Below, piece after piece: positions 3,971 to 53,870 of a DNA stretch of 64,000 nucleotides; the first letter of the stretch is position 1, and every line of letters begins with the position of its first letter. This stretch comes from Nannocystis bainbridge (GTDB lineage: Bacteria; Myxococcota_A; Polyangia; Nannocystales; Nannocystaceae), in assembly GCF_028368995.1 (NCBI RefSeq), contig NZ_JAQNDL010000001.1:4192001-4256000 (forward strand), in the 5' to 3' direction. A model generated the notes under the pieces. It made no database searches. It was not told the origin of the DNA and was given only the letters and a program-made list of their open reading frames with translations. A program made the position numbers and the translations under genes.

Positions 3971-4870
3971 TCAAAGCGCGCCAGGGTCGGCCCACGGCGG
4001 CAGCTCGGCGCGCACGTCGACGGCGACGCCCGTCATCGGATGCGTGAACGCGAGCCGCACGCAGGCCAGCTCGAGCACCTCACCGGCGCCCGCGCGCCCG
4101 ACGACCGACAGCCCCAGCGCCTGCGCGTGCAGCGAGATCTGCTCGGTCGGCGCCCGGCGCAGCTCGACCTCGACCAGCGTCGCGCCGTCCCGCTCGGCCA
4201 GCCGCCGGAACTCGGTGCGCGCCGGCACCGCCTCGCGCTCGTCGGGGCGCGCGAGGCGGACCGCGCCGGTCGCCTTGATCAGGGGTGTCTCACAGACCAT
4301 GTCCCCGGGGACATGTCCTGAAAGCCTGGCTCGGTAGACGCGCAGCGCGTCGAGCTCGGCGAACTTCGGCAGGAAGCTGGAAGTGTCCTGGCCGCGGAAG
4401 GTGAACAGCGCCAGGCCGGCGGCCGCCGGGTCGAGGGCGTGGACGAGGCCGACGTAGGGCCGCAGGACGCCCTCGCGCGCGAGCCGCTGGACCAGCGCCG
4501 GGCTGACCGCGCCGCGGCTGCCCTCGCGGGTGGCCGCCGCCGGCACGCCGTGTGGCTTGTCGACGATGACGCAGTGGGCGTCGCGGTGCACGACGACCAG
4601 GCTGTCGGGGGCGAGCGGCGCGACGCTGGACGCGCCGCGGTAGATCGTGACCCGCTCACCCTCGCGCACGCGCAGGGTCGGGATGCAGCTGCGCACGGTG
4701 CCGATGTAGACGCCGCCGGCGCGGATGAGCTCGGACGCCGGCGCGACCCCGAGGCCGAGCCGGCGCCCGAGCAGCTGGCGCAGGGTCATGCCGTCCTCCA
4801 TCGAGATCACGCGCACGCGCACGCGGGCCTCCGCGGCCTCGGGCTGGCTCGGCTGGTCGGCGCTGCTCAT
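3971..4870 (-). CDS. RluA/RluD-family pseudouridine synthase-like protein with S4 domain, degenerate
   Basis: S4-like N-terminus; IVDKPHG motif I; VHALDPAAAGL in place of HRLD; APTEQISLH in place of GRTHQIR. Confidence 0.75.
   Translation of the reverse strand: MSSADQPSQPEAAEARVRVRVISMEDGMTLRQLLGRRLGLGVAPASELIRAGGVYIGTVRSCIPTLRVREGERVTIYRGASSVAPLAPDSLVVVHRDAHCVIVDKPHGVPAAATREGSRGAVSPALVQRLAREGVLRPYVGLVHALDPAAAGLALFTFRGQDTSSFLPKFAELDALRVYRARLSGHVPGDMVCETPLIKATGAVRLARPDEREAVPARTEFRRLAERDGATLVEVELRRAPTEQISLHAQALGLSVVGRAGAGEVLELACVRLAFTHPMTGVAVDVRAELPPWADPGAL
4281..4322. repeat. In-frame 14-bp-phase cluster (3 units) inside RluA-like gene
   Basis: aggggtgtctcaca|gaccatgtccccgg|ggacatgtcctgaa; encodes SGHVPGDMVCETP. 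Confidence 0.8.
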
Positions 4871-5018: not shown

Positions 5019-5983
5019 GAACGCTTGAGGCGCAGCTCGGCGGCCAGCTCGCGCAGCTCGGCCGCGGTGACGTGGTAGCGCTCGCCGCAGTACGAGCAGC
5101 GGACCTCGGTGATCTCGCGCTCGCCGGCGAGGGCCTCGACGTCGTCGGCGCCGAGCATGGCGACGATGTCGCGGGCCACCGCCGGGCCGCAGTTGCAGCG
5201 GAACGCCAGCGGGGTCTCGCCGACGACCTCGAACGGGCCGTCCGCGAGGGCGAGGCGCAGCAGGTCGGCCGGCTCGCGCGGCAGCATCAGCAGCGACGCC
5301 AGGGCCTCGCCGCCCACCCGCTGGCGCAGGGGGGCCAGCACCTCGCCGTCGCTGCCGGGCAGGGTCTGGACCAGCAGGCCGCCGGCCCGCAGCACGTCGC
5401 CGTTGGCGTCGAGCAGCACCTCGCAGCGCAGCAGCGACGGCACCTGCTCGCTGGCGTTGAGGTAGTGCTCGAGGTCGACGTCGACCTCGCCGGCCACCAG
5501 CTCGACGGTGCCCTGGTAGCGAGAATCTGTCCCTGCGGACATGTCAAAATCGCGGGTCACGGTGAGCACGCCGCGCCGGCCGAGGAACGGCGACAGCGGC
5601 AGGCGACCCGACGCGCGCTCGAGCGTGGCCCGCAGCGGCGTGTCGCCGAAGCCGCGGCGCAGGCAGCCGCGCACCGTGCCGTCGCCGTGGGCGTCGAGCA
5701 GGAACCCGCCGGCCTCGCCCTCGCCGCCGCCCGGGCCGCGCGAGTCCAGGACGCTGCGCGCGTCGACCCGCAGGCGCTCGACCGGCGACTTCGTCAGCGT
5801 CGTCAGCAGGCACCCGGCCGTCAGCGCCCGCCCGAGCGCGATCGCCTCGAGCCCGCGGATGCCGTGGCGCCGGCACGACTCCTGGACCAGGTCGGTGGTG
5901 ACGGCCGCGAGCGCGCGCATCGCCGCCTGTTCGGGCGAGGCGGAGTCGGGCGCAGCGGCGATGGCGCGGAGGAGCACGTCCAC
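5015..5983 (-). CDS. hslO: Hsp33 redox-regulated chaperone
   Basis: ALGRALTA, YQGTVEL, YLNASEQVPS, AGGLLVQTLPG; C-terminal CNC...CSYC zinc motif. Confidence 0.9.
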   Translation of the reverse strand: MDVLLRAIAAAPDSASPEQAAMRALAAVTTDLVQESCRRHGIRGLEAIALGRALTAGCLLTTLTKSPVERLRVDARSVLDSRGPGGGEGEAGGFLLDAHGDGTVRGCLRRGFGDTPLRATLERASGRLPLSPFLGRRGVLTVTRDFDMSAGTDSRYQGTVELVAGEVDVDLEHYLNASEQVPSLLRCEVLLDANGDVLRAGGLLVQTLPGSDGEVLAPLRQRVGGEALASLLMLPREPADLLRLALADGPFEVVGETPLAFRCNCGPAVARDIVAMLGADDVEALAGEREITEVRCSYCGERYHVTAAELRELAAELRLKRS

Positions 5984-11282: not shown

Positions 11283-11337
11283 GACATGCTCAAGAGGACA
11301 TGCCCGATCGGGCATGTCCGTCCGACCAGGCTCAATC
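11254..11337. repeat. 14-bp-phase array (6 units) spanning ybaK end and convergent gap
   Basis: cgctctgtccgctc|gtacaggccccttg|agacatgctcaaga|ggacatgcccgatc|gggcatgtccgtcc|gaccaggctcaatc. Confidence 0.85.
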
Positions 11338-12917: not shown

Positions 12918-14462
12918 TCAATTATTCTCGGCGCCGGCGTTGATCCACGCGCGGATCAGCGCGACGGTGCCGTCGGTCAGCAGGGTGGGCGCGTTGTAGG
13001 GCATGTGGCGGACGGCCCGGCCGTCGCTGTCGGTCGGGTCACAGCGCGAGACGATCTGGTACAGCCAGCTGCCCTCGGCGTCGCCGGGCGCGACCAGCGG
13101 GGCCTCGACGCGGGCCGCGACTTTGTGCGCGAGCAAGCGCTCGTGGAGCCCCGGCGACTGCAAATCGAGGCCCGCGGCCGGCTGCTTGGCGTCGTGGCAC
13201 GACGAGAACACGCAGCCCGGGGCGAAGATGGCGCTGTGGAGGCGCTGCAGGCTCGGCGGGCCCTTCGCGGGCACCGTCGCGTCGGCGTCGACGCACTGCT
13301 TCTGCGGCTCGAGGTCGACGTCGCCGGGGTCGCCCGGCGGGACGTACAGCGGCGCGGCCTGCTCCTCGGCGGTCGGCTCGGTCTGGGCGCCGTTCTCGGG
13401 GAAGGCGAGCACCTGGCACGGGCCCTCGTGGAGCAGCACGTCGCCCTCGACGCCGACCGGCTTCGAGCCGGTGAGCACGCTGATGTCCATGATCGCCCGG
13501 CTGTCGGCGAGGCCGAGCATGACGCACATCTCCTGGTCGCCGATGCCCCAGCCGATCGGGACGTCGCGCCAGTTGTCGAAGCCGCACGAGAAGCGCAGGC
13601 CCTCGCTGCCGCCGAGGTCGAGCGGCGGGTCGAACGCTTTGCCGCCGGCGTCGGCGTTGAAGCCGGTCTTCTCGAACACGACCCGGCTGTCGCCGTCGGC
13701 GTCGAACGTCTCGAGGCGGAAGTAGTCGCCGAGGTAATGGGTGTGCGGCAGGACGTGGTAGAGCTTGAGGTCGAACTCGCCGGCGACGGCGCCGAGGTAG
13801 GGCCCACGCAGCTTGCAGGCGCCGGTGAAGCGGCTGCGGCGCTCGGGCGGGATCTCGAGGTCGAAGTAGGACAGGCGGAACGGCGCGACCAGGACCTCGA
13901 CGTCGCGCGGGTGGATGATGTCGAGGGCCATGCGCAGCTCGGTCTCGACGGCGACGCTGGCGAGGTTGAGGAGGTGGACGCCGGCGATGATCTTGTGCCG
14001 CGGGGGGATCTTGATGACGACGCCCGGGGGCAGCTGCTGGACTTCGCTGCGCGACTGGGTCGACTGGGCGAACACGACGGTGCCCGAGAGCGCGGCGTCG
14101 AGCTCGGTGTAGCCGCGGTCGGAGCAGCGGAAGAAACCATCTTCACCGGCGAATTTGTCCTCGGGGACCGTCAGCCAGTTGCTGTGGTGGAAGCCGCCGT
14201 CGTTGACCATGGTGACGGCGTTGACGTAGAGCGGCTGGTCGTTGTGGAGCGTCCACTGCACGCACGGCTCGGTCTCCTCGAAGGGGGCGAGGGTCGTCAG
14301 GCCGAAGGTGTGCACCAGCGTGGCCCGCGAGCCGTCGTCGGGCGCGCCCGTGCTGGTGCCGCTGGTGGCCTCGGTCGCGGCCGGGTTCTCGGATGTCCGA
14401 CAGGACAGGTTCGCAGCGACGAACCCCGCCGCGGCCGTGCGCGCCAGCGCATGCATGTACAT
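12918..14462 (-). CDS. Lipoprotein: copper type II monooxygenase-like domain plus cytochrome c-like domain (paralog 2)
   Basis: NLSC lipobox-like; FHHSN, GVHLLN, LPHTHYLG, QEMC; CVFSSCH...MP...WINAGA; collinear with paralog 1. Confidence 0.7.
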   Translation of the reverse strand: MYMHALARTAAAGFVAANLSCRTSENPAATEATSGTSTGAPDDGSRATLVHTFGLTTLAPFEETEPCVQWTLHNDQPLYVNAVTMVNDGGFHHSNWLTVPEDKFAGEDGFFRCSDRGYTELDAALSGTVVFAQSTQSRSEVQQLPPGVVIKIPPRHKIIAGVHLLNLASVAVETELRMALDIIHPRDVEVLVAPFRLSYFDLEIPPERRSRFTGACKLRGPYLGAVAGEFDLKLYHVLPHTHYLGDYFRLETFDADGDSRVVFEKTGFNADAGGKAFDPPLDLGGSEGLRFSCGFDNWRDVPIGWGIGDQEMCVMLGLADSRAIMDISVLTGSKPVGVEGDVLLHEGPCQVLAFPENGAQTEPTAEEQAAPLYVPPGDPGDVDLEPQKQCVDADATVPAKGPPSLQRLHSAIFAPGCVFSSCHDAKQPAAGLDLQSPGLHERLLAHKVAARVEAPLVAPGDAEGSWLYQIVSRCDPTDSDGRAVRHMPYNAPTLLTDGTVALIRAWINAGAENN

Positions 14463-14521
14463 CGCCTCCGAGGCCGGCCACGGCCGCCCCACCTCAAATT
14501 ATCATCGCCCCCGCCGCCTCG

Positions 14522-15060: not shown

Positions 15061-16317
15061 ATGGCCGAGCGCCCCCGCTTTTCCTCCCGCTATCTGGCGT
15101 ACGCGCTCGCGGTCGTGTTCTTCGCCAACTTCCTCAACTACGCCGACCGTCAGGTGGTGAGCGCGCTCGAGGTCGAGATCAAGAGCGCCTTCGCCATGAC
15201 CAAGGCGGAGTTCGGCATGCTGTGGTCGGCCTTCACGCTCGGCTACATGGTGTTCGCGCCGCTGATCGGCTACTGGGCCGGGCGCTACCGCCGGACCATG
15301 ATCTTCGCCGCGTGCGTGTTCATCTGGTCGCTGGCGACGATCGGCTCGGGCATGGCGACCGGCAAGACCGGGCTGTTCGTGTCGCGCTTCTTGATCGGCG
15401 TCGGCGAGGCCGGCTGCCTGGTCATCGGCCCGACGCTGGTCGCGGATTACTTCTCCGACCAGGTCCGCGGCCGCGCGCTGGCGCTGTTCTTCCTCGGCAT
15501 GCCGCTCGGCGGGACCGCCGGTTACCTGATCGGCGGGCTCGTCACCCACTACTCCGGCAGCTGGCAGAACGCGTTTTACGTGGCCGGCGCGCCCGGGCTG
15601 GTGGTCGCGGTCCTGATCGCGCTGCTGGCCGAGCCGCCCCGCCCCGGGTCCTCGGGGACAGGTCCCGAAGAACATGTCCAGGGGGCCAGGTCGTACCTGG
15701 CCCTGCTGCGCAACAAGACGCTGATGCTGATCATCCTCGCGCAGGCGTTCGCGGTGATGATCCTGGTGCCGGTCCTCCACTACAGCATCGAGTTCTTCCA
15801 GAAGGAGCGCGGCATGACCAAGGTCGAGGCCTCGCTGGCGCTCGGGGTGATCGGCCTGGTCGGCGGCCTCATCGGCTCGGGCCTGGCCGGCCTGCTCGGC
15901 GACCGCCTGGCCCGCCGCAGCCGCGGGGCCTACGCGCTGCTGGCCGGCATCGCCTACGCGCTGGCGCTGCCGGCCTTCTTCATCGGCTTCTCCGTGGAGA
16001 GCCGGGCGATCTTCCTGCCGGCCCTGGGCGTCGGCGCGACCTGCCTGTTCGTCTGCATGCCCGCGGTCAACACCCAGATCGCCAACGTCGTGCCCGGCGC
16101 GCAGCGAGCGATGGCCTACGCGCTGGCGGTGTTCATCCTCCACTTCCTCGGCGACATGGCGGCCCCGCCGCTGTTCGGCCAGGTCGCCGACGTGTACGGC
16201 GCGCAGCAGACGTTCCTCGTCACGTCGTCGACGCTGATCCTCGCGGCGGCGTGCTGCTTCCTCGCGGTGCGCACCGCCGAGAAGGACATCAAGAAGTTCG
16301 TCGAAGGCCAGCCGTAG
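15061..16317 (+). CDS. MFS transporter (spinster-like)
   Basis: NFLNYADRQ, RFLIGVGEA, ADYF...RGRALA, HFLGD; about 12 TM segments. Confidence 0.9.
   Translation: MAERPRFSSRYLAYALAVVFFANFLNYADRQVVSALEVEIKSAFAMTKAEFGMLWSAFTLGYMVFAPLIGYWAGRYRRTMIFAACVFIWSLATIGSGMATGKTGLFVSRFLIGVGEAGCLVIGPTLVADYFSDQVRGRALALFFLGMPLGGTAGYLIGGLVTHYSGSWQNAFYVAGAPGLVVAVLIALLAEPPRPGSSGTGPEEHVQGARSYLALLRNKTLMLIILAQAFAVMILVPVLHYSIEFFQKERGMTKVEASLALGVIGLVGGLIGSGLAGLLGDRLARRSRGAYALLAGIAYALALPAFFIGFSVESRAIFLPALGVGATCLFVCMPAVNTQIANVVPGAQRAMAYALAVFILHFLGDMAAPPLFGQVADVYGAQQTFLVTSSTLILAAACCFLAVRTAEKDIKKFVEGQP
15642..15697. repeat. In-frame 14-bp-phase cluster (4 units) in MFS central loop
   Basis: ccccgggtcctcgg|ggacaggtcccgaa|gaacatgtccaggg|ggccaggtcgtacc; encodes GSSGTGPEEHVQGARS. 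Confidence 0.85.
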
Positions 16318-16340
16318 CGCGGGCCGCGGAGACTTCGCTG

Positions 16341-16372
16341 CCCACAAGGACATGTCCATATGTCCTTGTGGG
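16341..16372. terminator. 13-bp perfect hairpin containing GGACATGTCC between convergent genes
   Basis: cccacaaggacat-gtccat-atgtccttgtggg; no U-tract, so termination function is uncertain. Confidence 0.5.
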
Positions 16373-16545
16373 CCTCGGGCCGGGCGTGGGCGCTGGACTG
16401 GCTCCTGCGCCCGCACGGGCCCCCGCAGTGTCCGTCCCTCGGCTATCTACTTCGCGCGGTCTGCTGCGCGTCTCTCGAGGCTAGCGACCACGCGTGGCCG
16501 CGACAAGGTGTCGCCGGACCTCACGTGGCCTTTGCGACAGCCGAC

Positions 16546-17912: not shown

Positions 17913-20603
17913 CTACGACTCGCCGCGCGGGGGCGCACTCGAGGCCGTTCCGCCGTCGCCCAGGGCCTCGTGGATCCGCTGCGCCAGCGCTGCGCCGACA
18001 CCTTTCACCTCGGTGAGGCGCGCCGGCGCCGCGGCGCGGATCTCCGCGACCGTGCCGAAGTGCTGGATCAGCGCCTTCTTCAGCGAAGGGCCGACGCCCG
18101 GGATGTCGTCGAGCGCGCTGTGCAGCGCTCGTTTGCCGCGGCGCTTGCGGTGGTGCGTGATGGCGAAGCGGTGGGCCTCGTCGCGGATCTGCGTCATCAA
18201 GTACAGCTCGGAGCTGCCGGGGCGCAGGCGGATCGCGTCCTTGGCTCCGGGTACGAACACGCGTTCCGGTTTGACCTCCCACTCCTCGGGCTCGTCGTCG
18301 GGCGTGCGCACCACGTAGTCCTGGTAGCTCTGGCCTGGCCGCTGCGACGCGTCGTCGTCGGGCTCCGCCGGCGCGGGCGCGTCCTCGGCCTTGAGCGAGC
18401 TCTCGGCGTCGATCCCGGCCGTGGCGTCGGCGTAGGTCTTGAACGTGCGCAGCCGCTGCAGCGCCGCCTTGCCGCGCCCGAGGCCCTGGCGCCGCTCCTT
18501 GGCCAGCGAGACGACGTCGACCCCGCCCTCGCCGATCGGGACCCCGAGGTCGTTCAGCGCCGCGATCACCCGCCCGAGCTGGCCCTTGCCGCCGTCGATC
18601 ACCAGCAGGTCGGGCAGCGCCCAGGTGTTCTCGACGACCTCGTCGGCCGCGCCGATCGCGACCTCGGCCTCGGCCTCGGTCGAATCATCTGTCTCTTCGG
18701 ACATGTCCTCGCCGACATTCGCGCGCTTGAGCCGGCGGCCGAGCACCTCGTACATGCTGCGGAAGTCGTCGTTCTGGCGGTCGCCCTGGGCCAGGCCGCC
18801 CAGGCCCCGGATCTTGAAGCTGCGGTAGCGCCGCTTGGCGGCCGCGCCGTCGACGAACACCACCATCGAGGCGACCGTGTCCTGGCCCTGGATGTGGCTG
18901 ATGTCGTAGCACTCGATCACCCGCGGCAGGCGCGACAGGCCGAGGCGCTGCTGCAGGGTGCGCAGGGCCTGCTCGCTGTCCTCGGCGCGGTTGCGGCGCG
19001 AGTTGAAGTTGGAGGCGGCGTTGCGCTGGGCCAGGATCGAGAGCTTCTTGCGGTCGCCGCGCTCGGGCACCAGCAGCGCGACCTTGCGGCCGCTGTGCTC
19101 GCGCAGCCACGACTTGAGCGGCGCCTCGTCGTCGTCGAGCAGCTCGGACGGCAGGAGCACCTCGTCGGGGATCGTCGGCGCGTCGTCGTAGTAGGCGACG
19201 AGGAAGCTGCCGAGCACGTCTGGGTCGGGCAGCTCCATGCCGCGGGCCGAGAACGTGCGCGTACCCATCAGCTTGCCCTGGCGCACGTGCATGACCACGA
19301 ACTCGACCTGGCCGCCCTCGCGGTACATGCCGACGACGTCCTGGTCGAGCGTGACCGAGCCGACCACCTGCTGCCGCTCGAGGCTGGTGCTGATCGCCGA
19401 GAGCTGGTCGCGCAGGCGGGCCGCCGTCTCGAACTCGAGCGCGCCGGCGGCGTCCTCCATCTGCGTGGTGAGGCCGGCGACCAGCTCCTTGTGGCGGCCC
19501 TCGAGGAACAGGCCGACGCCCTTGACCTGCTGGCCGTAGGCGTCGCGGTCGACCGGATAGACGCACGGCGCCGGGCAGCGGCCGATCTGGTGCTGCAGGC
19601 ACGGGCGCTTGCGGTGCGTCAGGGTGTAGTCGGTGCAGGTGCGCAGCTTGAAGTAGCGGTTGACGACCTTCAGCGTGTGGCGGGCGCTCTGGGCCGAGTG
19701 ATACGGGCCGAAGTAGCGGGCGCCGTCCTGACGCATGCGCCGGACCAGCTCGAGCCGCGGCCATTTGGCCTTGGGGTCGAGGCGCAGGACCAGGAACTGC
19801 TTGTCGTCGCGCAGCTTGACGTTGAAGCGCGGCTTGTACTTCTTGATGAGATTATTCTCGAGCAGCAGCGCCTCCTTGTCGTTGGAGGTCACCACCGTCT
19901 CGATGTCGCCGAGCGTGTGCGCCAGGTACGGCACGAACAGCCGCGGGTCGGTGCCGTTGAAGTACTGGCGCACGCGCGCGCGCAGCCGCTTGGCCTTGCC
20001 GACGTAGACCACGTCGCCCTTGCGGTCGCGCATGATGTAGACGCCGGGCAGGTCGGGCAGGCGCTCGACGATCTCCGCCAGCTCCTCGGCCGTGCCGGCG
20101 CGCGGCTGCCACACCGCGTCGGCCTGGATCGCCGCCAGCGCCTCGGTCTTGGCCGAACCGGCGAACCGGCCCGGCGCGTCGAGGTCGGCGGCGCCGCCGT
20201 CGGCGACCTCGAAGCTCTCGAGCACGTCCTCGGTCTCCGGCGCGTACGCCTCGGTCGAGGGCGGCTTCGGGGCGTCGTCCGGATATGGCTTTTGGGACAT
20301 GCCCTCGGGGACATGTCCTGAAGCGCCGGCCGCCGATGCCTTGCGGCCGCCCCGGGACGGCCTCGCGGGCGCCGGCTGGGAGGCGCTCGCGGGCGCCGGC
20401 TGGGGGGCGCTCGCGGGCGCCGGCCCGGAGGCGCTCGCGGGCGCCGGCCCGGCGCTCGCGGGCTCCGCGGCGTCTTCGACATGTGTCCCCGGGGACATGC
20501 CCTCAGGGGCATGTCCCGAAGGACTGGTCACAGCGGAGGCGGCGGGCGGCGCAGCGGGCGGGGCTTCGGGGCTATTCGGGGGTCGTCCTTGACGCGCGGC
20601 CAT
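17913..20603 (-). CDS. uvrC: Excinuclease ABC subunit C with long low-complexity N-terminal extension
   Basis: GIY-YIG (PGVYIM...YVGKAK), Cys cluster, UVR domain, IECYDISH, DGGKGQL, RDEAHRFA, HhH2; start codon uncertain. Confidence 0.95.
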   Translation of the reverse strand: MAARQGRPPNSPEAPPAAPPAASAVTSPSGHAPEGMSPGTHVEDAAEPASAGPAPASASGPAPASAPQPAPASASQPAPARPSRGGRKASAAGASGHVPEGMSQKPYPDDAPKPPSTEAYAPETEDVLESFEVADGGAADLDAPGRFAGSAKTEALAAIQADAVWQPRAGTAEELAEIVERLPDLPGVYIMRDRKGDVVYVGKAKRLRARVRQYFNGTDPRLFVPYLAHTLGDIETVVTSNDKEALLLENNLIKKYKPRFNVKLRDDKQFLVLRLDPKAKWPRLELVRRMRQDGARYFGPYHSAQSARHTLKVVNRYFKLRTCTDYTLTHRKRPCLQHQIGRCPAPCVYPVDRDAYGQQVKGVGLFLEGRHKELVAGLTTQMEDAAGALEFETAARLRDQLSAISTSLERQQVVGSVTLDQDVVGMYREGGQVEFVVMHVRQGKLMGTRTFSARGMELPDPDVLGSFLVAYYDDAPTIPDEVLLPSELLDDDEAPLKSWLREHSGRKVALLVPERGDRKKLSILAQRNAASNFNSRRNRAEDSEQALRTLQQRLGLSRLPRVIECYDISHIQGQDTVASMVVFVDGAAAKRRYRSFKIRGLGGLAQGDRQNDDFRSMYEVLGRRLKRANVGEDMSEETDDSTEAEAEVAIGAADEVVENTWALPDLLVIDGGKGQLGRVIAALNDLGVPIGEGGVDVVSLAKERRQGLGRGKAALQRLRTFKTYADATAGIDAESSLKAEDAPAPAEPDDDASQRPGQSYQDYVVRTPDDEPEEWEVKPERVFVPGAKDAIRLRPGSSELYLMTQIRDEAHRFAITHHRKRRGKRALHSALDDIPGVGPSLKKALIQHFGTVAEIRAAAPARLTEVKGVGAALAQRIHEALGDGGTASSAPPRGES
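20281..20534. repeat. Two 14-bp-phase clusters flanking a 21/24-bp tandem repeat in the uvrC 5' extension
   Basis: Units at 20281, 20295, 20309 and 20479, 20493, 20507, 20521; between them gcgctcgcgggcgccggc x4-5 (PAPASAS). Confidence 0.85.
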
Positions 20604-38652: not shown

Positions 38653-41562
38653 TCACGGCTTGCCGCCGACCGTCAGCTGCACGCTGGCCCCGCGCGCCAG
38701 CCCCAGCGTCAGCGTCGTCTTCTCCGGCGCCCGCGTCAGCGCCCAGAACAGGTAGCTGTTCGGCCCTCGCACGTCTTGCCCATCGACGTTGACGATCTCG
38801 TCGCCCGCCACCACTCCTGCCGACGCTCCCGGCCCGCCCGGTCGCACGTGCGCCACCACCAGCCGCCGCTTCGCCGGCTCGTCGCCGGGCGCCGGCTCGC
38901 GGATCGCGAAGCCCAGGTCACCTCCGGTCTCTCGCGGCGCGACCCGCCGCCGCGCCAAGCGGATCGGCGCCAGCTCCACGGTCGTCGCCGCGGCCGACAG
39001 CGTCACCGGGATCGACGACCCGCCGAACTCGCTGTCCTGGACCATCGGCGACACGCTCACCAGGACCTGCCCGGTGGGCGCGTTGTGGAACTCGAACCGG
39101 CCCTCCGCGTCCGTCACGTTGGCCTTGCCGTCCTGCGCGCTCACCCCGGTCCCCGAGCCCGTCACCGTCACCGTGAGCCCAGGCGCCGGCTTGCCCTCGA
39201 GGTCGACCACCGTCCCGCGCACCGTCACCTTCGGCATCAACTCGATGCGCACGCCGCTGGTCTCCTCGCCAGCCGCGACCTTCACCCGCATCTCCGCGGC
39301 TCCTGCTCCCGCGCTCACCATCACCTTGAGCTCGCCGCCCGGCACCTCGGTGAAGCTCCAGGCCCCGTTCGTGCGGTAGAACTGGTCGGAGCGGCGGAAC
39401 CCCGTCGTCTCGTCGGACAGCCGCACCACGAACTCCTCCGGCGCCCCGCCGCCCGCCAGCACCACCGTCCCTGCCAATCGACTCGCCGGCGCCAGCGTCA
39501 GCGTCACCTCGCTGCCGAGCGCCACGTGCTCGACGATCGCCTCCCCGCCGCCGCGACGATGCGCCCGCAGCGTGTGCTTGCCTTCGTTCAGGTCCGTCAG
39601 CGTGAACCGTCCCTCGGCGTCGGTGAGGTTCGGCCGCTTGCCGAGGGTCCACCGCGTGTCGCGCGAGCCGTTGCCCTCCGCCGCCGAAGCGCTGTCCGAC
39701 TCGCGCGCCGCCTCGACGAACGCGTCGCTCACCACCGCCCCGTGTTCGTCGCGCACCACCCCCGAGATCTGCCCCGAAACGGTCGCCACCACCAGGTTCA
39801 CCGTCGTCACCGCGTCGGCCCGCACCTCGATCTTCTCACCCTGAAGGTCGTCGTCGCTGGTCCCCGGCGCTCGCAGCCTCTCCCAGTTCTTCTCCGCCTG
39901 GATTCGGTACTCGCCGACGCCCACGTTCTCGATGCGGAAGGTCCCGTCGTCCGCCACCACCCCGCCGATCCCCTGAGCCCCGCTCAGCCCCACCGACGCC
40001 CCGCGCACCGGCTGCCCCTTCGCGTCACGCACCGACCCGCGCACCTCTCCGACCGTCGGCAGCTCGATCCGCAGGCCCTCGAGATCCTGTCCCTTCGGCA
40101 AGGTTACTTCCATCGGCTTCGGCGTTGCGCGCGGCGGATCCCACGCCGACACCTGCACACCATAGGGCCCCGGGAGCAACCCCGTCACCTCGAAGCGCCC
40201 GCTCGTGTCGGTGCGAGCGTTCCACGACCGCGACTGCTGCGCGTGCGGTCGCGACGGATCTGGCCGCGGGTTGGCCCCCACCATCAGCTTCGCCACCGGC
40301 CGTCCGCCGGCGTCGACCACGGTCCCGCGGATCGCCTGCCCGCGCGTCACCTTCCACGCGATCCCGGACACGCTGCGGCCGTCCACCTTCACCTTTTCGT
40401 ACATGTCCTCCGAGACATGTCCTTCGCACCGCACCTCGACCTTGTACTCGCCCGGTCGCATCCCCCGCAGCCGCACCACCCCGTCCGCCTCGATGACTCC
40501 GCGCACCTGGCGAGCGCCCGCCCCGTCGCGCAGCTCCACCCATCCGACGTCGCAGCTGCTGCCGCCCTCGATCGCCACCTTCCCCTCGACGAAGAACGCC
40601 GGGTGCGCCGTGATCACCACCGGCTCCGAAGTCTCTCCGAGCCCCAGCATCACCTGCTCCTCCGCCAGCCCGTAGAGCTCGTCGGACTCCGCGCTCGGCT
40701 TGTAGGCCCCCGGTGACAGCCGATCGAGCCGGAACTGCCCCTGCGCGTCGGTCAGCGTCCAGCTCTCCCCGGCCGCCACGCGCACGTCCGCCAACGGCTC
40801 CCCGCTGCCCGCGCGCACCACCTTGCCGACCAGCACCGCCTCGGGCGTCAGGAAGATCTCGAAGAAGTGCCCCGGCGCCACGCCCCTGTCGTTGTTCGTC
40901 ACGTAACCCTCGGCGGAGCCTGCCAGCCCGAGCCCGCCCGGTCGCACCCACATCGAGAACTCGCCCTCGGGGCCCGTGAACGTCGACGACTGTCGGTGCC
41001 CTGCCACCCTCGCGCCCTCGATCGGTCCGCCGCTCAGGTCTCGCACCACCCCGCGCACCTCGACCCCGCCCTCCTCGAGCGCGATGTCGACGCCCAGCAG
41101 CTCCAGCCCCGGCCGCAGCTCGACCCACTCCCGCCGGCTCGCGCCTTCTCCGTGCGCATGCAACGTCGGGATGAACCCCGGCGCCGTCGCCACCACCTCG
41201 TGACGCAGACCGAACAGCCCCTCGATCCGGTAGTGCCCGTCGCGCTCGCTCGTCGCGCAGGTCAACTGGAACCGCTCCTCCGCCGTCAGCCGCTGGGAGT
41301 CCGTCGTCGCGCACACCCGCGCCCCCGCGACCGGCGAGCCCTTCACGTCGCGCACGAACCCCGCGACCGACGCTCGAGCTCCCAGCCGCGGATCGAAGGC
41401 CGGCAGCGACGGCTCCCCTTGACCACTCGACAGCCCTGCCTGCACCGGCGCCTCTGCGCGCCCGCCCGTCGTCGGCGCCGGCAGCTCGCTGCCCTCGCCC
41501 AGCCACCACAGCAACAGCCCGATCGCTCCCAGAACCACACCCGCGACGATCTCCCTGCGCAT
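38653..41562 (-). CDS. Membrane-anchored multi carboxypeptidase-regulatory/Cna-B-like repeat protein with C-terminal PDZ (paralog 1)
   Basis: N-terminal TM; repeated G-V-RD-G-PV-GA-V and TD-GRF beta-sandwich units; GDEIVNVDG PDZ. Confidence 0.85.
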   Translation of the reverse strand: MRREIVAGVVLGAIGLLLWWLGEGSELPAPTTGGRAEAPVQAGLSSGQGEPSLPAFDPRLGARASVAGFVRDVKGSPVAGARVCATTDSQRLTAEERFQLTCATSERDGHYRIEGLFGLRHEVVATAPGFIPTLHAHGEGASRREWVELRPGLELLGVDIALEEGGVEVRGVVRDLSGGPIEGARVAGHRQSSTFTGPEGEFSMWVRPGGLGLAGSAEGYVTNNDRGVAPGHFFEIFLTPEAVLVGKVVRAGSGEPLADVRVAAGESWTLTDAQGQFRLDRLSPGAYKPSAESDELYGLAEEQVMLGLGETSEPVVITAHPAFFVEGKVAIEGGSSCDVGWVELRDGAGARQVRGVIEADGVVRLRGMRPGEYKVEVRCEGHVSEDMYEKVKVDGRSVSGIAWKVTRGQAIRGTVVDAGGRPVAKLMVGANPRPDPSRPHAQQSRSWNARTDTSGRFEVTGLLPGPYGVQVSAWDPPRATPKPMEVTLPKGQDLEGLRIELPTVGEVRGSVRDAKGQPVRGASVGLSGAQGIGGVVADDGTFRIENVGVGEYRIQAEKNWERLRAPGTSDDDLQGEKIEVRADAVTTVNLVVATVSGQISGVVRDEHGAVVSDAFVEAARESDSASAAEGNGSRDTRWTLGKRPNLTDAEGRFTLTDLNEGKHTLRAHRRGGGEAIVEHVALGSEVTLTLAPASRLAGTVVLAGGGAPEEFVVRLSDETTGFRRSDQFYRTNGAWSFTEVPGGELKVMVSAGAGAAEMRVKVAAGEETSGVRIELMPKVTVRGTVVDLEGKPAPGLTVTVTGSGTGVSAQDGKANVTDAEGRFEFHNAPTGQVLVSVSPMVQDSEFGGSSIPVTLSAAATTVELAPIRLARRRVAPRETGGDLGFAIREPAPGDEPAKRRLVVAHVRPGGPGASAGVVAGDEIVNVDGQDVRGPNSYLFWALTRAPEKTTLTLGLARGASVQLTVGGKP
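40399..40426. repeat. In-frame two-unit cluster absent from the paralog
   Basis: gtacatgtcctccg|agacatgtccttcg; encodes EGHVSEDMYE versus NGFVSAERYE in the paralog. Confidence 0.85.
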
Positions 41563-41635
41563 CGACTCCGTCCTCACGCATCAACCTGGTCTTTGGGACA
41601 CCCGTGTCGACCTGTCCCTCGAGACATTTGATTCC

Positions 41636-44620
41636 TCACGGCGTCTTGCCGGCCGTCACCGCCACGCTCTTCCCGCTCAGCGTCCCGAACGTCACCGCCG
41701 TCCCCTCGAGCACCGCCGTCAGCCCATGATAGAGGTATGCGTTCGCCCCCGTCACGTCCTGCCCGTCGACGCTCGTGATGGTGTCGCCGATCTGCAGCCC
41801 GGCGAGCGCCGCCGGGCTGTTCGGCTGCACGTGGGCCACCGTCAGCTGCCGCGCCAGCGGATCGGCGCCCGGCTCCGACTCCTTGAATTTGAGGCCGAAG
41901 TAGCCGGACGCGTCGCCGTCCTTCACCCGGCGGCGGGCCACCTTGATCGGCGGCAAGTTCGTCACCGACGCCTCCGACGACAACACCGCCGGCATGTTCG
42001 TCCACGCGTACTCGTTGCTGCCCCAGCTGCGCGGGTGCACCGAGACTTGCACCTTCCCGCTCGGCGCGTTCGTCACCTCGTAGCGACCGCCCTCGTCGGT
42101 CACGTTGCGCTTCTCCTCGTCGCCGCCGCCGCCCGACCAGGTGCCCGGCGCGCTGACGTACACCTCCATCCCGGCGAGCGGCTTGCCCTCGGTGTCGACC
42201 ACCGACCCGCGGACCGTCACCTTCGGCGCCAGCTCGATGCGGACCCCGCTGGTGTCCTTGCCCGCGCTCATCGCCGCCTGCACCTCCGCCGTGCCCGGCC
42301 CTGCCGTCACCGACACCTTGTAGTTCCCGGCCGGCAGCTCCGACAGGCTCCATGACCCGCCCGTGCGGAAGAACTGGTCGGTGCGGCGATAGCCGGTCGC
42401 CTCGTCGATCGCCACGATCGTGAACTCCTCCGGCGACGTCCCGCCGCGCACGTTCACCATCCCGGACATCCGCCCCGCCGACGCGATCGTCACCACCACA
42501 TCGCTGCCGAGCTCCACGTGCTCGACGATCCCCTCGCCTCCGCCCTTGCGATGCGCCCGCAGCGTGTGCTTCCCGGTCGGCAATTGCTCGAGCGTGAACT
42601 TCCCGTCCTGATCGGTCAGGTTCGGCTTCTCGAAGAACTCACCCCAGCGGCCCTGACGGATCCCCGCCCCCGCCGCCTTCGTCGCGCTGTCCGACTCGCG
42701 CGTCGCCTCGATGAACGCGTCGGCCACCACCTCGCCGTCCTCGTCGCGCACGGTCCCCGAGATCCGCCCCGACGCGCTCTCGACCACCAGCTTCACCGTC
42801 GCCACCTTGCCCTCGCGCACCTCGACCCGCTCGCCCTGCACGTCGTCGTCACTGGTCCCCGGCGCCCGCATCGCGTCGCCCCACCAGCCGAGCCGCGCCG
42901 TCACGCGATAGTCGCCGCCGACCAGGCTCTCGAAGTGGAAGCTCCCGTCGTCCTTCGAGGTCGTCGACTGCCAGTGCACCCCGTCGCTGACGTTGACCTT
43001 CGCCGAGGCGATCGGCTGCCCTTTCGGATCGCGCACCGACCCCTGCAGCTCGCCGGACGGCGGCAGCTCGATCCGCAAGCCCGTCACGTCCTTCCCCTTC
43101 GTCACCTCCACCAGCGTCGGCTTCGCCGGCGTCGCCCGCGGCTTGCGCCACGTGTTCAGCGACAGCTCGTACGTCCCGGGCAGCAGCCCCGCCAGCTCGA
43201 AGCGGCCCTGCGCGTCGGTCTCGGGGCCCCACACGTTGGTCGTCTGGTGCCCGCGCGGCTGGCTCGGGTCCGGCTTGAGCGACGCGTCGAGGTTCACGTG
43301 CGACGCCGGCTTGCCGCTCGCGTCGACCACCACCCCGCGGATCGATTGCCCCTTCGCCACGTCCCAGCGCAGCCCCGTCACGCTCTTGTCGACCACCTTG
43401 ATCCGCTCGTAGCGCTCGGCCGACACGAACCCGTTGCAGCGGACGTGGACCTGATAATCACCCGGCAGCGCCCCGCGCTGGCGCACCGTCCCGTCGCTCT
43501 CGACCGACATCCACATGTCGCGGCCCTGCGCCGCGTCCTCGAGGCTGACCGAGCCGTCGACGCAGCTCGCCCCGCCCTCGGTCACGATCTTGCCCTCGAT
43601 GAGGAACGCCGGGTGCGCCTCGATCACGATCGGCGCCGAGGTCTCGCCGAGCCCGAGGATCACCTGCTCCTTCGCCACCCCGAGCGCGTCGTCGGCCTCC
43701 GCCCGCGCCTTGTAGGCCCCGGGCTCGAGCCCATCGATGCGGAACTCGCCGCTCGAATCGGTGTAGGCCGACTTCGGCATGAAGCCCCAGCCGCCCGTCA
43801 TCGCCGTCACCTGTGCCCCCTCGACCGGCCCGCCGCCCTCGCCCGCGCGCACCACCTTCCCGATCAGCACCGCCTCCGGCGTCAGGAACAGCTCGAACTC
43901 GTGACCCGGCGCCACGCCCTCTTCCGTGCCCAGCGCGTAGCCCTCGGCCCGCGCGATGATCCACAGCGGCCCTTCCTTCACCCACGCCGAGAACGACCCG
44001 TCGGCCGCCGTCCACGTGAACGTCGCGTCGGCGGCGACCTGCGCCCCCTCGACCGGCCCGCCGCTCAGGTCCTTCACGAACCCGTGGATCTCCACCCCGC
44101 CGTCCTCGAGCGTGATGTCGACGTCGAGCACCTCCATCTTCGGTCGCAGGTCGAGCCAGCTGCGCCGGCTCGCCCCCTCGCCCTGGTAATACGTCCCCGG
44201 CGCGAAGCCTGCCCCGCTCGCCAGCACCGTGTAGCGCACCGGATACAGCCCCTCGATCCGGTAGTGACCGTCGCGCTCGGTCTTCGCGCAGCTCGGCCGC
44301 TCCGTGTCCTTCGTCGCCAGCAGGTTCGAATGGGTCACCGCGCACACCTGTGCGCCCGCCACCGGCTGCCCGTTCGGGTCGCGCACCGTCCCCGCGATCG
44401 CGGCCCGCTCGGCGAGGCTCGGGTTCAGCGTCAGCGTCGGTCGCAGCTCCGGCAGGCTCGCCACGATCGCCTGCGCCGGCGCCAGGGCCTGCTCCTCCGC
44501 CGCCGGCAGCGCCGCGCTCTCGGCCCCGCTGCGCCACCACCACAGCGCCGCCGCCCCGGCCAGCCCCGCGATCACCAGCCATACCGGCCCTGTCCCTCGC
44601 GCCTCGTCTTGCTTGCTCAC
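41636..44620 (-). CDS. Membrane-anchored carboxypeptidase-regulatory-like repeat protein with C-terminal PDZ (paralog 2)
   Basis: Collinear with paralog 1 (APGTSDDD-QGE, AHR-GGGE-IVEHV-LGS); PDZ GDTITSVDG. Confidence 0.85.
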   Translation of the reverse strand: MSKQDEARGTGPVWLVIAGLAGAAALWWWRSGAESAALPAAEEQALAPAQAIVASLPELRPTLTLNPSLAERAAIAGTVRDPNGQPVAGAQVCAVTHSNLLATKDTERPSCAKTERDGHYRIEGLYPVRYTVLASGAGFAPGTYYQGEGASRRSWLDLRPKMEVLDVDITLEDGGVEIHGFVKDLSGGPVEGAQVAADATFTWTAADGSFSAWVKEGPLWIIARAEGYALGTEEGVAPGHEFELFLTPEAVLIGKVVRAGEGGGPVEGAQVTAMTGGWGFMPKSAYTDSSGEFRIDGLEPGAYKARAEADDALGVAKEQVILGLGETSAPIVIEAHPAFLIEGKIVTEGGASCVDGSVSLEDAAQGRDMWMSVESDGTVRQRGALPGDYQVHVRCNGFVSAERYERIKVVDKSVTGLRWDVAKGQSIRGVVVDASGKPASHVNLDASLKPDPSQPRGHQTTNVWGPETDAQGRFELAGLLPGTYELSLNTWRKPRATPAKPTLVEVTKGKDVTGLRIELPPSGELQGSVRDPKGQPIASAKVNVSDGVHWQSTTSKDDGSFHFESLVGGDYRVTARLGWWGDAMRAPGTSDDDVQGERVEVREGKVATVKLVVESASGRISGTVRDEDGEVVADAFIEATRESDSATKAAGAGIRQGRWGEFFEKPNLTDQDGKFTLEQLPTGKHTLRAHRKGGGEGIVEHVELGSDVVVTIASAGRMSGMVNVRGGTSPEEFTIVAIDEATGYRRTDQFFRTGGSWSLSELPAGNYKVSVTAGPGTAEVQAAMSAGKDTSGVRIELAPKVTVRGSVVDTEGKPLAGMEVYVSAPGTWSGGGGDEEKRNVTDEGGRYEVTNAPSGKVQVSVHPRSWGSNEYAWTNMPAVLSSEASVTNLPPIKVARRRVKDGDASGYFGLKFKESEPGADPLARQLTVAHVQPNSPAALAGLQIGDTITSVDGQDVTGANAYLYHGLTAVLEGTAVTFGTLSGKSVAVTAGKTP

Positions 44621-46990: not shown

Positions 46991-49900
46991 ATGCGCTTTG
47001 AACGCCTGACCGTCGAGCGCTTCGGCCACTTCGAATCGCTCGACATCGACCTGCCCGGAGGGCCAGGTCTCGTCGTCCTTTACGGCCCCAACGAGGCTGG
47101 CAAGACCACCCTCTTGCGGGCTCTCCACGGCCTCCTCTTCGGCGTCGACGAGCGCACCCCTTACGCCTTCGAGTACGACTACCGCGCCATCGCCTTGCGC
47201 GCCGTCCTGCGCGACAGCGCCGGCCAGCGCCTCCACGTCACTCGCCTCAAGAAGCGCAAGGACTCGCTCGTCGGCAGCCTTCACAGCGAAGCTGGCGAAG
47301 TCCCCCTCGACGGCGCTCGCTTCGCCCGTTACTTCGGCGCCATCACCGAAGAGCTCTACCGCGCCATCTTCGGCTTCACCCACGCCGACCTCCAGCAGGG
47401 CTCCGACGTCCTTCAGGTCGCCGGCCTCTCCGAGATCCTCGGCGGCGGCGCCCTCGGCGGCAGCGCCGAGAAGATCCGTGGCGCCCTCGCCGGCCTCCAG
47501 GGCGAGGGCGAGAACCTCTTCAAGGCCAAGGGCAAGAACCCCGCCATCAACCGCGGCCTCACCCAGCTGCGCGACGCCAAGCACGCCCTGCGCGACGCCA
47601 TGTTCGCCCAGCCGCAGTACGCCGCGCTCACCACCAACCTCGCCGTCGCCCGCCACGACGCCGACGCTGCCGAGTCCGAGCTCGCCCGCCTGCGCGAGCG
47701 CGAGGCCCGGCTGCGCACCTTGCTCGGCGTGTTCGAGGACTTTCACGAGCACCTCGGCCTCGTCCGCGCCCTCGCCGATCCGTCGCTGCGCACCGACCTC
47801 GACGAGCCTGCCGCCGAGCGGGCGCGCCAGCGCCACGCCGAGTTCCAGGCCGCCGACAACCAGCTGCGGGCCCTCGACGCCGAGCTCGCCCGCCTGCTCG
47901 CCCGCGCCGACCAGCCCGCCGCCGACCCCGCCCTGCTCGCCGAGGCCGGCGCCGTCGAGCGGCTCGTCCGCCGCGTCGAGACCGTCGCCGAGCAGCGGCT
48001 CGTCGTCCCGCGCGAGCGCGAGCGCCTGGCCCGCGAGACCGACGCCCTACAATCTGTCCTTGCGACCATGTCCCCCGGGACACGTCCCGAAGACCATGTC
48101 CGATGGGTCATCCAGCCGCACGAGCTCGACCGCCTGCGCGCCCTCGCCACCCGCTGGCAGCGCGCCCGCCAGGAGCTCATGTTGTCGGCCCGCGGCCTCG
48201 CCGACGACGAGGCCGAGCTGTCGGCCTTGCGCGCCAGCGTCGCCGAGCTGGCCGCCGCCGCCCCGGACTTCGAGGACAGCGCCCTGCTCGCCGAGCTCGA
48301 GGACGCCCTCGCGCGCAAGGCCGAGCTCGACCGCGAGGAGCTGGCCGTCGCCCGCCTGCGCGCCGACCTCGACCTCGGCCTCCTGCGCCTGCACCCCCCG
48401 CTGCCCGCCGCCGACCTCGCCGCCGTCCCGCTCCCGCGCCCCGCCGACCTCGACGACCATCACGCCCGCAGCCTCGACCTCGAGCGCGAGCGCCGGGCTG
48501 CCCTTTCGGACCTGTCCCGAGAGCAAGCCGACCTCGCCCGCGCCCGCGCCGAGCTCGCCGCCCTCGCCGGCGCCGACTTGCCCGACCTGGACGCCCTCGC
48601 TGCCGCTCGCGCCCGCCGCGACGAGGTCTGGCAGGACGTGCGCCGCCGGCTCCACAGCCACGAGGGCTTCGGCGCCCTGTTCGCCGGCGCCGACGGGGCC
48701 GACCTCGGGCCCGACACCGCCGCCGCCCGCAAGCAGCTCACCCGCCGCTTCGAGCGCGCCCTCGCCGACGCCGACGACCTCGCCGACCGCCTGCGCGACG
48801 CCGCCGACTTGCTGGCCAAAAAGACAGGTCTCTTGCGGCAGATCGACGGCGCCGAGCAGGACGTCGCGCGCGCCGAGGAGCGGGTCGCCGCGGCCGGCCG
48901 CACCGAAGCGCGCTGGGCCGCCGACTGGGCCGCCGTGTGGCGCCCGACCAAAATCATCCCTGGCCCGCCCGCGGCGATGATCCCGTGGTGCCGCGACGCC
49001 GCCGACCTGCGCGAGCACGCCGCCGACCTGGTCCGCCGCGAGGAGGTCGTCCGCCGCCTGCGCCCCGCGATCGACGAGTTCACCGCCCGTCTGCAGCGCC
49101 GCCTCACCTGGCCCGGCGCCAGCCTGCCCGCGCTCGCCCAGGGCCTGCGCGAGCGCGAGCGCACCGCCCTGGCCGCCCGCGCCCGCCTCGAGGCCGCCTC
49201 CGCCCGCCTCGCCGGCCTCGAGAGCGCCGTCGCCCGCGGTCACGCCGCCGACGCCGCGCTCTCGCGCGAGCTCGCCGACCTGCGCGCCAGCCTCTCCGCC
49301 CTGCTCATCACCCTCGGCCTGCCCGCCGACCTCGAGCCCGACGCCGCGCTCGCCCGCATCGATGCCCTCGAGGACATGTCCCAAAAGCTAGCCAACCTCG
49401 AGGCTCGCCGCGAGGCCTTGCACCGCGGCGAGGCCCTGCTCGCCGGCTTCGACGCCGAGTTCACCGCCCTGCTCGCCCGTCTCGGCCGCCCGGCCGACGA
49501 CGCCGCCCCCGAGCACACCGTCGACCGCCTCAGCCGCCGCCTCGCCGAGGCCCGCACCGCCGCCGCCGCCGCCGCTCAGGCCCGCGAGCAGGCCGACGCC
49601 AAGCAGCAGGAGCGCGACGCCCTCGCCGAGACTCGCGCCGCCGCCGTCACCGAGCTCGCCGCCCTCGCCGCCCGCGCCCGCGCCCGCGACACGGCTGAAC
49701 TTTTGGACATGTCCGAACGAGCGCTCCAGCGCGCCCGCCTGCACAAGCGCCAGAGCGAGCTCGCCCTGCGACTGGCCCGCGCTCTCGGCGACGGCCCCGC
49801 CCGCGACAGCTACGACGCCGAGCTCCAGGGCGCCCGCCGCGAGGCCCTGCTCGCCGAGCGCGACGAGCTCGCCAGGCGGATCTCCGACCTCGACCGCCGC

Positions 49901-50543: not shown

Positions 50544-50623
50544 CGACATGTCACTTCGGACATGCCCTTCGGCGCATGCTCCCTAGGACATGCCCTCTTG
50601 GACATGTCCAAGAGGGCACCCGC
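50544..50623. repeat. 14-bp-phase array (6 units) filling the convergent yhaN/asnB gap
   Basis: cgacatgtcacttc|ggacatgcccttcg|gcgcatgctcccta|ggacatgccctctt|ggacatgtccaaga|gggcacccgc. Confidence 0.92.

Positions 50624-53793: not shown

Positions 53794-53870
<77 letters not shown>

Follow-up and report, generated by a model that had tools for sequence, protein, structure and literature searches.

Hyper-abundant, clade-specific DNA words such as HIP1, the DNA uptake sequences and the repetitive extragenic palindromes (REPs) pose a long-standing puzzle of selection versus drive versus mobility. A further word of this kind was investigated in Nannocystis bainbridge, starting from a 64,000-nucleotide stretch of its genome (contig NZ_JAQNDL010000001.1, positions 4,192,001 to 4,256,000 of the forward strand; hereafter the window), in which the 10-bp palindrome GGACATGTCC recurs between genes and inside them, the copy of primary interest being that at 40399-40426 within an open reading frame (ORF). 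The closest known system is HIP1, followed by the uptake sequences. HIP1 (GCGATCGC, in cyanobacteria) is described as a palindrome with an over-representation of 15- to 300-fold, conservation both inside ORFs and between them, and no known function (PMC5861425). The Nannocystis word resembles it as a short clade-specific palindrome found far above expectation inside and between genes, and in its conservation between genomes, which is read as selection on the DNA word. It is unlike HIP1 in sequence and phylum, in its bipartite 5-N4-5 form, its 14-bp tiling and its concentration behind genes, and in that no cognate methyltransferase was found in the genome, where about ten matches to N6/N4 methyltransferases have specificities that are unreadable from sequence.

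Uptake sequences, known as DUS (DNA uptake sequence) in Neisseria and USS (uptake signal sequence) in the Pasteurellaceae, occur at approximately 1 per kb and form inverted pairs behind genes (terminator pairs), and their in-gene copies reportedly arise by point mutation and shape the proteome. They share with the Nannocystis word a genus or family specificity, thousands of copies and in-gene copies made by point mutation, but are non-palindromic, asymmetric words of 9-12 nt that are scattered singly in both orientations without phased arrays; they are also defined by uptake bias. REPs and bacterial interspersed mosaic elements (BIMEs) are palindromic units that lie behind genes, grouped into arrays whose unit number varies, and in this they match the extragenic copies of the Nannocystis word, which differs in its much shorter units, in its hundreds of conserved, substitution-made in-gene copies, and in that no REP-associated tyrosine transposase (RAYT; PF01797) was found in the genome. 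Rickettsia palindromic elements (RPEs) and other miniature inverted-repeat transposable elements (MITEs) are likewise found inside ORFs, but enter as whole-element insertions, whereas aligned Nannocystis in-gene sites are indel-free and differ by 1-2 substitutions. The met-boxes of MetJ, short palindromes that abut head to tail in runs of at least two and are bound by dimers side by side, may serve as an analogy for how the head-to-tail boxes of the Nannocystis arrays work and for that only, as they are a handful of promoter sites in one regulon, while the Nannocystis word has thousands of copies, mostly behind genes, and no known binding protein. Intrinsic terminators have a stable G+C-rich hairpin in common with the Nannocystis intergenic pairs, which lack the T-run.

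In the 11.05-Mb genome of N. bainbridge (71.5% G+C), GGACATGTCC occurs 956 times and the reversed word once, and among the four commonest 10-bp palindromes it alone contains A/T. The bipartite form TGTCC-N4-GGACA is present in 1987 copies, whereas changing the spacer to 1-3, 5 or 6 nt leaves 0-16. Copies of GGACATGTCC with at most one mismatch (4116) form 602, 280, 259, 127, 35 and 24 pairs at distances of 14, 42, 28, 56, 70 and 84 bp, respectively, and the commonest spacing outside the 14-bp series accounts for 15 pairs. The 4-nt spacer is diverse, with the pattern Y-Y-R-R (TTCG/CGAA making up 10%), and 1145 of the 1987 14-mers have no adjoining half-site. The basic unit is a 14-bp palindrome, (CA)TGTCC-YYRR-GGACA(TG), which stands alone or is tiled head to tail, and it is this tiling that makes GGACATGTCC the unit junction and sets the 14-bp phase. 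The CATG core is nearly invariant (in 2655 pairs of adjacent units, the first units show 86 variants at C and 33 at G), and arm variants are mostly uncompensated (for example, 381 + 314 versus 146 compensated). Compensatory change across the spacer, as judged from exact-word counts, looked weak after correction for chance matches of G+C-rich words. Within the window, GGACATGTCC with at most one mismatch was found 34 times, compared with 1.95 expected (the maximum of 100 shuffles being 6).

The motif is specific to the genus Nannocystis. A 19-mer probe had 311 copies in the N. bainbridge genome and was positive in 10 of 10 congeners, with 1 to 223 copies (the lowest count, 1 in 4.5 Mb, comes from a genome that is 64% complete, G004), while single copies were seen in 2 of 30 genomes of other genera, and the reversed control gave 0 everywhere. 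Across 185,579 species, each represented by one genome, the exact pair was found at 78 loci, 64 of them titled Nannocystis, 9 from a metagenome-assembled genome (MAG) of Nannocystaceae, 2 from a Myxococcales MAG, and 3 unrelated singletons. In 200-kb samples of two sister genera (G019 and G013) the 14-mer had 0 and 2 copies, compared with 41 in a 200-kb N. bainbridge control, and no analogous palindrome was seen among the top 8-mers of these samples. There were 0 matches to a 28-nt composite of the motif in viral contigs, and no published description of the motif was found in the literature covered, outside which most subscription journals lie.

The in-gene copy that started this analysis is defined by three features of the window:
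40399..40426, minus strand: in-gene copy of the palindrome, encoding GHVSEDMY
38653..41577, minus strand: host gene (paralog 1), with carboxypeptidase-regulatory-like repeats and a C-terminal PDZ domain
41636..44620, minus strand: tandem paralog 2, whose aligned segment (approximately 43394-43444) is of equal length and without the motif

The forward-strand letters of 40399-40426 are gtacatgtcc tccg agacatgtcc ttcg, and the coding (minus) strand of the ORF at 38653-41577 reads GGA CAT GTC TCG GAG GAC ATG TAC at the site, giving GHVSEDMY within VRCEGHVSEDMYEKVKV. The first-pass annotation of this locus had described two phased 14-bp units; the motif is there, but is better described as one 14-bp palindrome with 1 mismatch (TGTCC-TCCG-AGACA, 40404-40417) and a half-unit on either side; the 10-mers at the site are GTACATGTCC (40399-40408) and AGACATGTCC (40413-40422). 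The orthologous 14-mer is exact in congeners G010 and G001. At approximately 43394-43444 paralog 2 encodes VRCNGFVSAERYERIKV (codons GGG TTC GTG TCG GCC GAG CGC TAC), and its aligned segment has no word within 2 mismatches of the motif. The two paralogs are 52% identical over 965 columns (BLASTP), and the block of residues 379-438 is gap-free, confirming the original observation that a motif in paralog 1 faces a motif-free segment of equal length in paralog 2. Among 26 segments homologous to the site, drawn from 16 genomes, 22 align ungapped and the four most distant have gaps of 1-2 residues. GGA-CAT/TAT-GTC is confined to the host gene and five orthologs that are 65-71% identical (in G010, G001, G007, G005 and G003), and the other 20 homologs are without the word, mostly encoding G-F/Y-V by GGG/GGC TTC/TAC GTG. 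Chance was rejected as the origin of the copy at 40399, as such unit pairs are approximately 50-fold above shuffles. A conserved peptide was also rejected as its cause, the motif-encoded residues differing in 20 of 20 non-orthologous homologs.

The host gene is a member of a large family of paralogs that combine carboxypeptidase-regulatory-like repeats with PDZ and have 9 matches in the N. bainbridge genome, located in the window at 38653-44620 and at seven more places, and present as tandem pairs or triplets in congeners. In G007 (C2:8627276-8632201 and vicinity), the ortholog and its neighbours match as consecutive pieces in differing frames, which looks like frameshifts or assembly errors.

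Comparison of orthologs and paralogs supports substitution as the rule for the origin of in-gene sites, with a minority of small indels. All in-gene sites of the window are at the same place in four syntenic congeners, without an indel. Over 390 kb (G000:C1:4065936-4453460) compared with two related genomes, G010 and G001, which as kin are not independent, the in-gene exact sites with an orthologous alignment were indel-free in 32 of 32 and 31 of 31 cases, respectively. Thirty-two sites are exact in at least one of the three genomes (14 common to three, 11 to two and 7 private), and the non-exact ortholog states differ by 1 (17), 2 (7) or 4 (1) substitutions. Alignment of orthologs for indels and turnover, proposed in the first-pass annotation as the check on its claim that sites arise by point changes, thus gave no indels and a turnover of mostly one or two substitutions. 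In a genome-wide paralog test of 238 sites, 165 were ungapped and 73 had a gap, compared with 44 of 238 control windows; residues were missing in the paralog at 46 sites (1-3 residues at 31, 4-9 at 15) and extra at 27. The claim therefore holds as a rule but is not universal, given these 73 gapped sites and an insertion in the Hsp33 gene described below. Compared with outgroup genera, the sites at 4295 and 49358 are ungapped with different residues, no alignable segment was found at 15656, 48494 and 49691, and the segments at 18685 and 48050 are gappy or of low identity.

Enrichment inside genes was quantified in 7098 coding-sequence interiors (7.73 Mb). The 14-mer was observed 691 times, 33-fold above the 20.9 of a synonymous-codon shuffle and compared with 3.2 in a codon-order shuffle, and the 10-mer 271 times (32.9 and 4.6, respectively), while control spacers matched expectation. 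The rare-codon frame GGA-CAT-GTC was found 99 times compared with 1.5 expected, and near-perfect 10-mer pairs 14 nt apart 72 times genome-wide, compared with 1, 1, 1, 1 and 3 in five synonymous-codon shuffles. As the in-gene sites are enriched in all three frames, they do not reflect a peptide motif; codon choice and amino-acid sequence are both bent towards the word.

Once formed, the word is held. The average divergence from G010 and G001 is 6%, 4.4% and 14.5-15.2% at codon positions 1, 2 and 3, respectively. At third codon positions, however, the specified motif bases differ at only 3 of 122 (G010) and 3 of 118 (G001) positions, approximately 2.5%, whereas flanks 9-30 nt off differ at 87 of 467 and 96 of 450 (19-21%; Fisher p = 8e-7 and 9e-8), and the 4-nt spacer at 8 of 26 and 11 of 25. 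The flanks evolve faster than average at all three codon positions, indicating that the sites are in fast-evolving protein segments. In-gene sites were intact in 24 of 32 orthologs in G010 (12.6 expected) and 22 of 31 in G001 (11.6 expected). In non-coding DNA 30-45% of motif positions align, and there motif bases differ at 10% compared with 22-23% for flanks, a contrast that may be inflated by register slips within arrays. These results support a constraint that acts on the DNA itself, and the earlier suggestion of selection or biased mutation on the DNA is upheld by both the synonymous-shuffle enrichment and the frozen third-codon positions. The 4-nt spacer outpaces even the flanks, although numbers are small, at third codon positions (31-44% versus 19-21%) and in non-coding DNA (41-49% versus 22-23%, where register slips may have inflated the spacer value).

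The majority of arrays are intergenic (2293 of 3624, 63%). Their density is highest in convergent spacers (950 arrays, 3.21 per kb), followed by tandem spacers (1142 arrays, 1.12 per kb), divergent spacers (201 arrays, 0.37 per kb) and coding DNA (1331 arrays, 0.145 per kb), so that convergent spacers exceed coding DNA 22-fold. Half (50%) of the convergent spacers contain an array, arrays of at least 5 units are nearly all in convergent or tandem spacers, and in tandem spacers the median distance is 55 nt from the upstream stop to the array, compared with 179 nt from the array to the next start. At orthologous places in five species, intergenic arrays differ by indels, unit number and sequence, and arrays hold higher-order duplications of 14, 28 and 42 bp. 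The motif family as a whole is placed like REP elements and not like a gene-internal signal. The first-pass annotation had set the motif apart from REPs, which is correct for the mode of origin in genes, but does not extend to the 63% of arrays in intergenic DNA, which follow genes and vary through indels and the number of their units. Several long arrays (C3:1085853, C3:1054303 and C4:430266) consist of one variant unit repeated 7-8 times or of 28- or 42-bp blocks, which points to recent growth by slippage or duplication and not to a unit-by-unit origin.

Motif density is approximately 1 per 3.8 kb genome-wide, with a mean of 13.3 copies per 50 kb, and counts per 50 kb correlate with G+C content (rho 0.55). 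Two motif deserts, C1:1100000-1300000 and C2:1850000-1900000, have a G+C content of 68-69%, and the 200 kb of the former hold 22 convergent spacers but 4 copies. Both deserts have the look of DNA that is foreign or was acquired recently, and the scarcity of the motif in lower-GC islands suggests that it marks long-resident DNA.

The anatomy, genus specificity, placement behind genes, substitution origin and constraint are shown by these data. We consider it somewhat better than even (approximately 55%) that the site at 40399 is an in-gene copy, slightly decayed, of a signal found throughout the genus, which is placed at gene ends, built in genes by substitution, constrained at the nucleotide level and read by a sequence-specific factor. 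The main home of the signal is the DNA just behind genes, where arrays grow and shrink by indels and whole-unit duplication. In genes, the word is assembled mainly by point substitutions, at the cost of rare codons and amino-acid changes in fast-evolving segments, and the finished word is then held by purifying constraint on its nucleotides. That substitutions converge on one fixed sequence is an argument for a sequence-specific reader, most likely a dimeric protein that would bind the duplex or a hairpin form, side by side on arrays. Its role may be the punctuation of transcription units, with transcripts ended or insulated at the ends of genes, and the in-gene copies may serve the same reader. 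The fuller picture, a genome-wide punctuation by tiled 14-bp operators bound by a dimeric factor, marking long-resident DNA and kept even within reading frames, is tentative, and we regard it as possible but doubtful.

If punctuation does prove to be the role, the word would give the HIP1 phenomenon a second, independent example, one with phased arrays that make the reader protein directly fishable. The Nannocystis word separates selection, drive and mobility more cleanly than most such cases, being substitution-built, with frozen synonymous positions and no REP-type transposase found in the genome, and its 14-bp tiling and concentration behind genes are concrete handles for finding the reader and the gene-end role. 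For annotation, the word also tells long-resident DNA apart from the islands of lower G+C in these genomes of 11-13 Mb.

Several results weigh against a gene-end signal with a dedicated reader. No reader protein was identified, and a gene-end role offers no evident reason for selection of the word inside ORFs. Half of the convergent spacers are without an array and the lower-GC islands nearly lack the motif, indicating that the signal is not required at every gene end. The hairpins have no T-run behind them (18 of 345 cases, compared with 54 of 1830 random 12-mers in the same flanks) and are therefore not classical intrinsic terminators. In a position-wise test, complementarity between adjacent units was 1.5-2.2 times the marginal prediction, a modest excess that is equally compatible with pairing, in RNA or in a DNA hairpin, and with a dimer that binds the duplex. 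The conservation test covers a single 390-kb region with 36 sites, compared with two related genomes, 4-5 of the sites lying outside the compared DNA, and placement was scored on home-made gene calls from our own hexamer-based caller (8143 genes, 81-85% coding). Finally, a 12-nt insertion accompanied the origin of one in-gene site, that in the Hsp33 gene.

The alternative that fares best, although we consider it unlikely, is an element that acts in RNA only, in which pairs of units would fold into stem-loops at the 3' ends of mRNAs, ending or stabilising transcripts with no need of a dedicated protein, and in-gene copies would be RNA structures that affect decay or translation. Arrays are indeed placed behind stop codons, and intergenic pairs fold as G+C-rich hairpins with 10-bp stems (-21 to -38 kcal/mol, z -3.2 to -4.8). 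The partial complementarity of adjacent units also suits this explanation, as does the excess of the sense form TGTCC-N4-GGGCA, which keeps a G.U pair, over its mirror (175 versus 78 and 94 versus 57); other variants of the G.U type, however, are unbiased (104 versus 114 and 84 versus 104). A structure-only element would need no fixed sequence, but uncompensated arm variants far exceed the compensated ones, as given above. The hairpins lack a T-run, shuffled sequences are as stable as the in-gene hairpin at 40399 (z 0.23), and no Rfam family matched the motif in the window.

An uptake or recombination signal of the Neisseria DUS or Pasteurellaceae USS type, in which competent cells would prefer the word and transformation would drive its spread by substitution, is slightly less likely again. 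Such a signal would account for the genus specificity and hyper-abundance, the inverted pairs behind genes, the substitution origin with in-gene conservation, and the near absence from foreign-looking lower-GC islands. The palindromic and strict 14-bp tiling, on the other hand, is not explained by any uptake bias, and the density of the word falls short of the approximately 1 per kb of uptake sequences.

A little less credit still is given to a by-product of methylation and repair bias, in which a site-specific enzyme pair would convert near-matches to the palindrome and the word itself would be functionless, a neutral-drive view that was once held for HIP1. The palindromic, clade-specific word and its entry into genes via substitutions are compatible with this, as are the approximately ten N6/N4 methyltransferase matches in the genome. 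There is, however, no match to a C5 methyltransferase family in the genome, and thus no classical partner for very-short-patch repair; the single D12-class methyltransferase is also present in genera without the motif (14 of 15 family genomes); the bipartite 5-N4-5 form and 14-bp tiling are not predicted by a single recognition site; and site positions are conserved among species.

A selfish mobile repeat of the REP/RAYT, MITE or RPE type, with in-gene copies as in-frame insertions, is very improbable and largely refuted for the in-gene sites, since the indel and unit-number variation of intergenic arrays between species, the 28- and 42-bp duplications, the Hsp33 insertion and the commoner gaps at sites than in control windows are outweighed by the 0 indels at aligned in-gene sites, the small size of most paralog gaps (1-3 residues at 31 of 46 sites), a 14-bp unit that is out of frame, no apparent target duplication at the Hsp33 insertion, and a search for a Y1 transposase (PF01797) that found 0 in the genome (completeness 90.5%) and was positive in 6 of 14 control genomes.

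Elsewhere in the window, the motif is represented by the following copies inside genes:
4295..4318, minus strand: double unit in a pseudouridine-synthase-like gene, encoding GHVPGDMV, at the identical position in four congeners
5523..5546, minus strand: site in the Hsp33 gene, reading TGTCC-ctgc-GGACATGTCA on the plus strand
14156..14169, minus strand: second example of the first-pass annotation, TGTCC-TCGG-GGACC, a 14-mer with 1 mismatch that encodes (T)VPED
15656..15679, plus strand: double unit in an MFS transporter gene, position conserved in four congeners
18685..18708, minus strand: in-gene site encoding EDMS, in the acidic linker of a UvrC-like gene
48050..48101, plus strand: run of three to four units in an AAA_27/SMC-like gene, in three different frames (QSVLATMSPGTRPEDHV)
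48508-48517, 49372-49381 and 49705-49714: more sites in the AAA_27/SMC-like gene

The double unit at 4295 aligns ungapped with two outgroup genera, which have GAAPAELR and GEPPAQMR in its place. The Hsp33 site coincides with a 4-codon insertion, DMSA (GAC ATG TCC GCA), relative to five outgroup genera, which contributes most of one motif unit; it is the one clear insertion-linked in-gene site found.

The second example compares two paralogs that are 58% identical and ungapped at the site, with ACG GTC CCC GAG GAC AAA TTC (TVPEDKF) in that at 12918-14492 and GCG GTG CCG GAG GAG GTG TTC (AVPEEVF) in that at 11332-12909. The 14-mer is exact in G005 and G001, and the sequences are as the first-pass annotation described them, but the VPED residues are also conserved in genera without the motif, an outcome that the annotation had itself named as refuting its claim, and this example therefore fails that check. 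A conserved peptide together with synonymous choices largely accounts for the site. The label 'monooxygenase' given to the two genes found no match in Pfam (1e-5), NCBIfam (1e-3) or the PDB (0.01).

Between genes, the window contains the following copies:
11296..11319: pair between convergent genes, a hairpin with a 10-bp stem (GGACATGCCC gatc GGGCATGTCC)
16340..16373: hairpin around a single unit, with a stem of approximately 15 bp (-29.4 kcal/mol), approximately 30 nt downstream of a stop codon
20295..20516: two pairs between same-strand genes (20295-20318 and 20493-20516), the entire stretch being absent from G001
50544..50609: five-unit array between convergent genes, beginning 2 nt past a stop codon

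The five-unit array varies in unit number and sequence among 5 species, and its predicted RNA fold reaches -34.8 kcal/mol (z -4.6) on one strand and -38.5 kcal/mol (z -4.8) on the other. The hairpin at 16340-16373 is nearly identical in five species, though the surrounding DNA varies. At 20295-20300, the called start codon of the UvrC-like gene is an ATG inside a motif unit; homologs from other genera align only from residue 30-64, and the true start is thus uncertain. The sole Rfam match over the window was a tRNA gene at 53794-53867.

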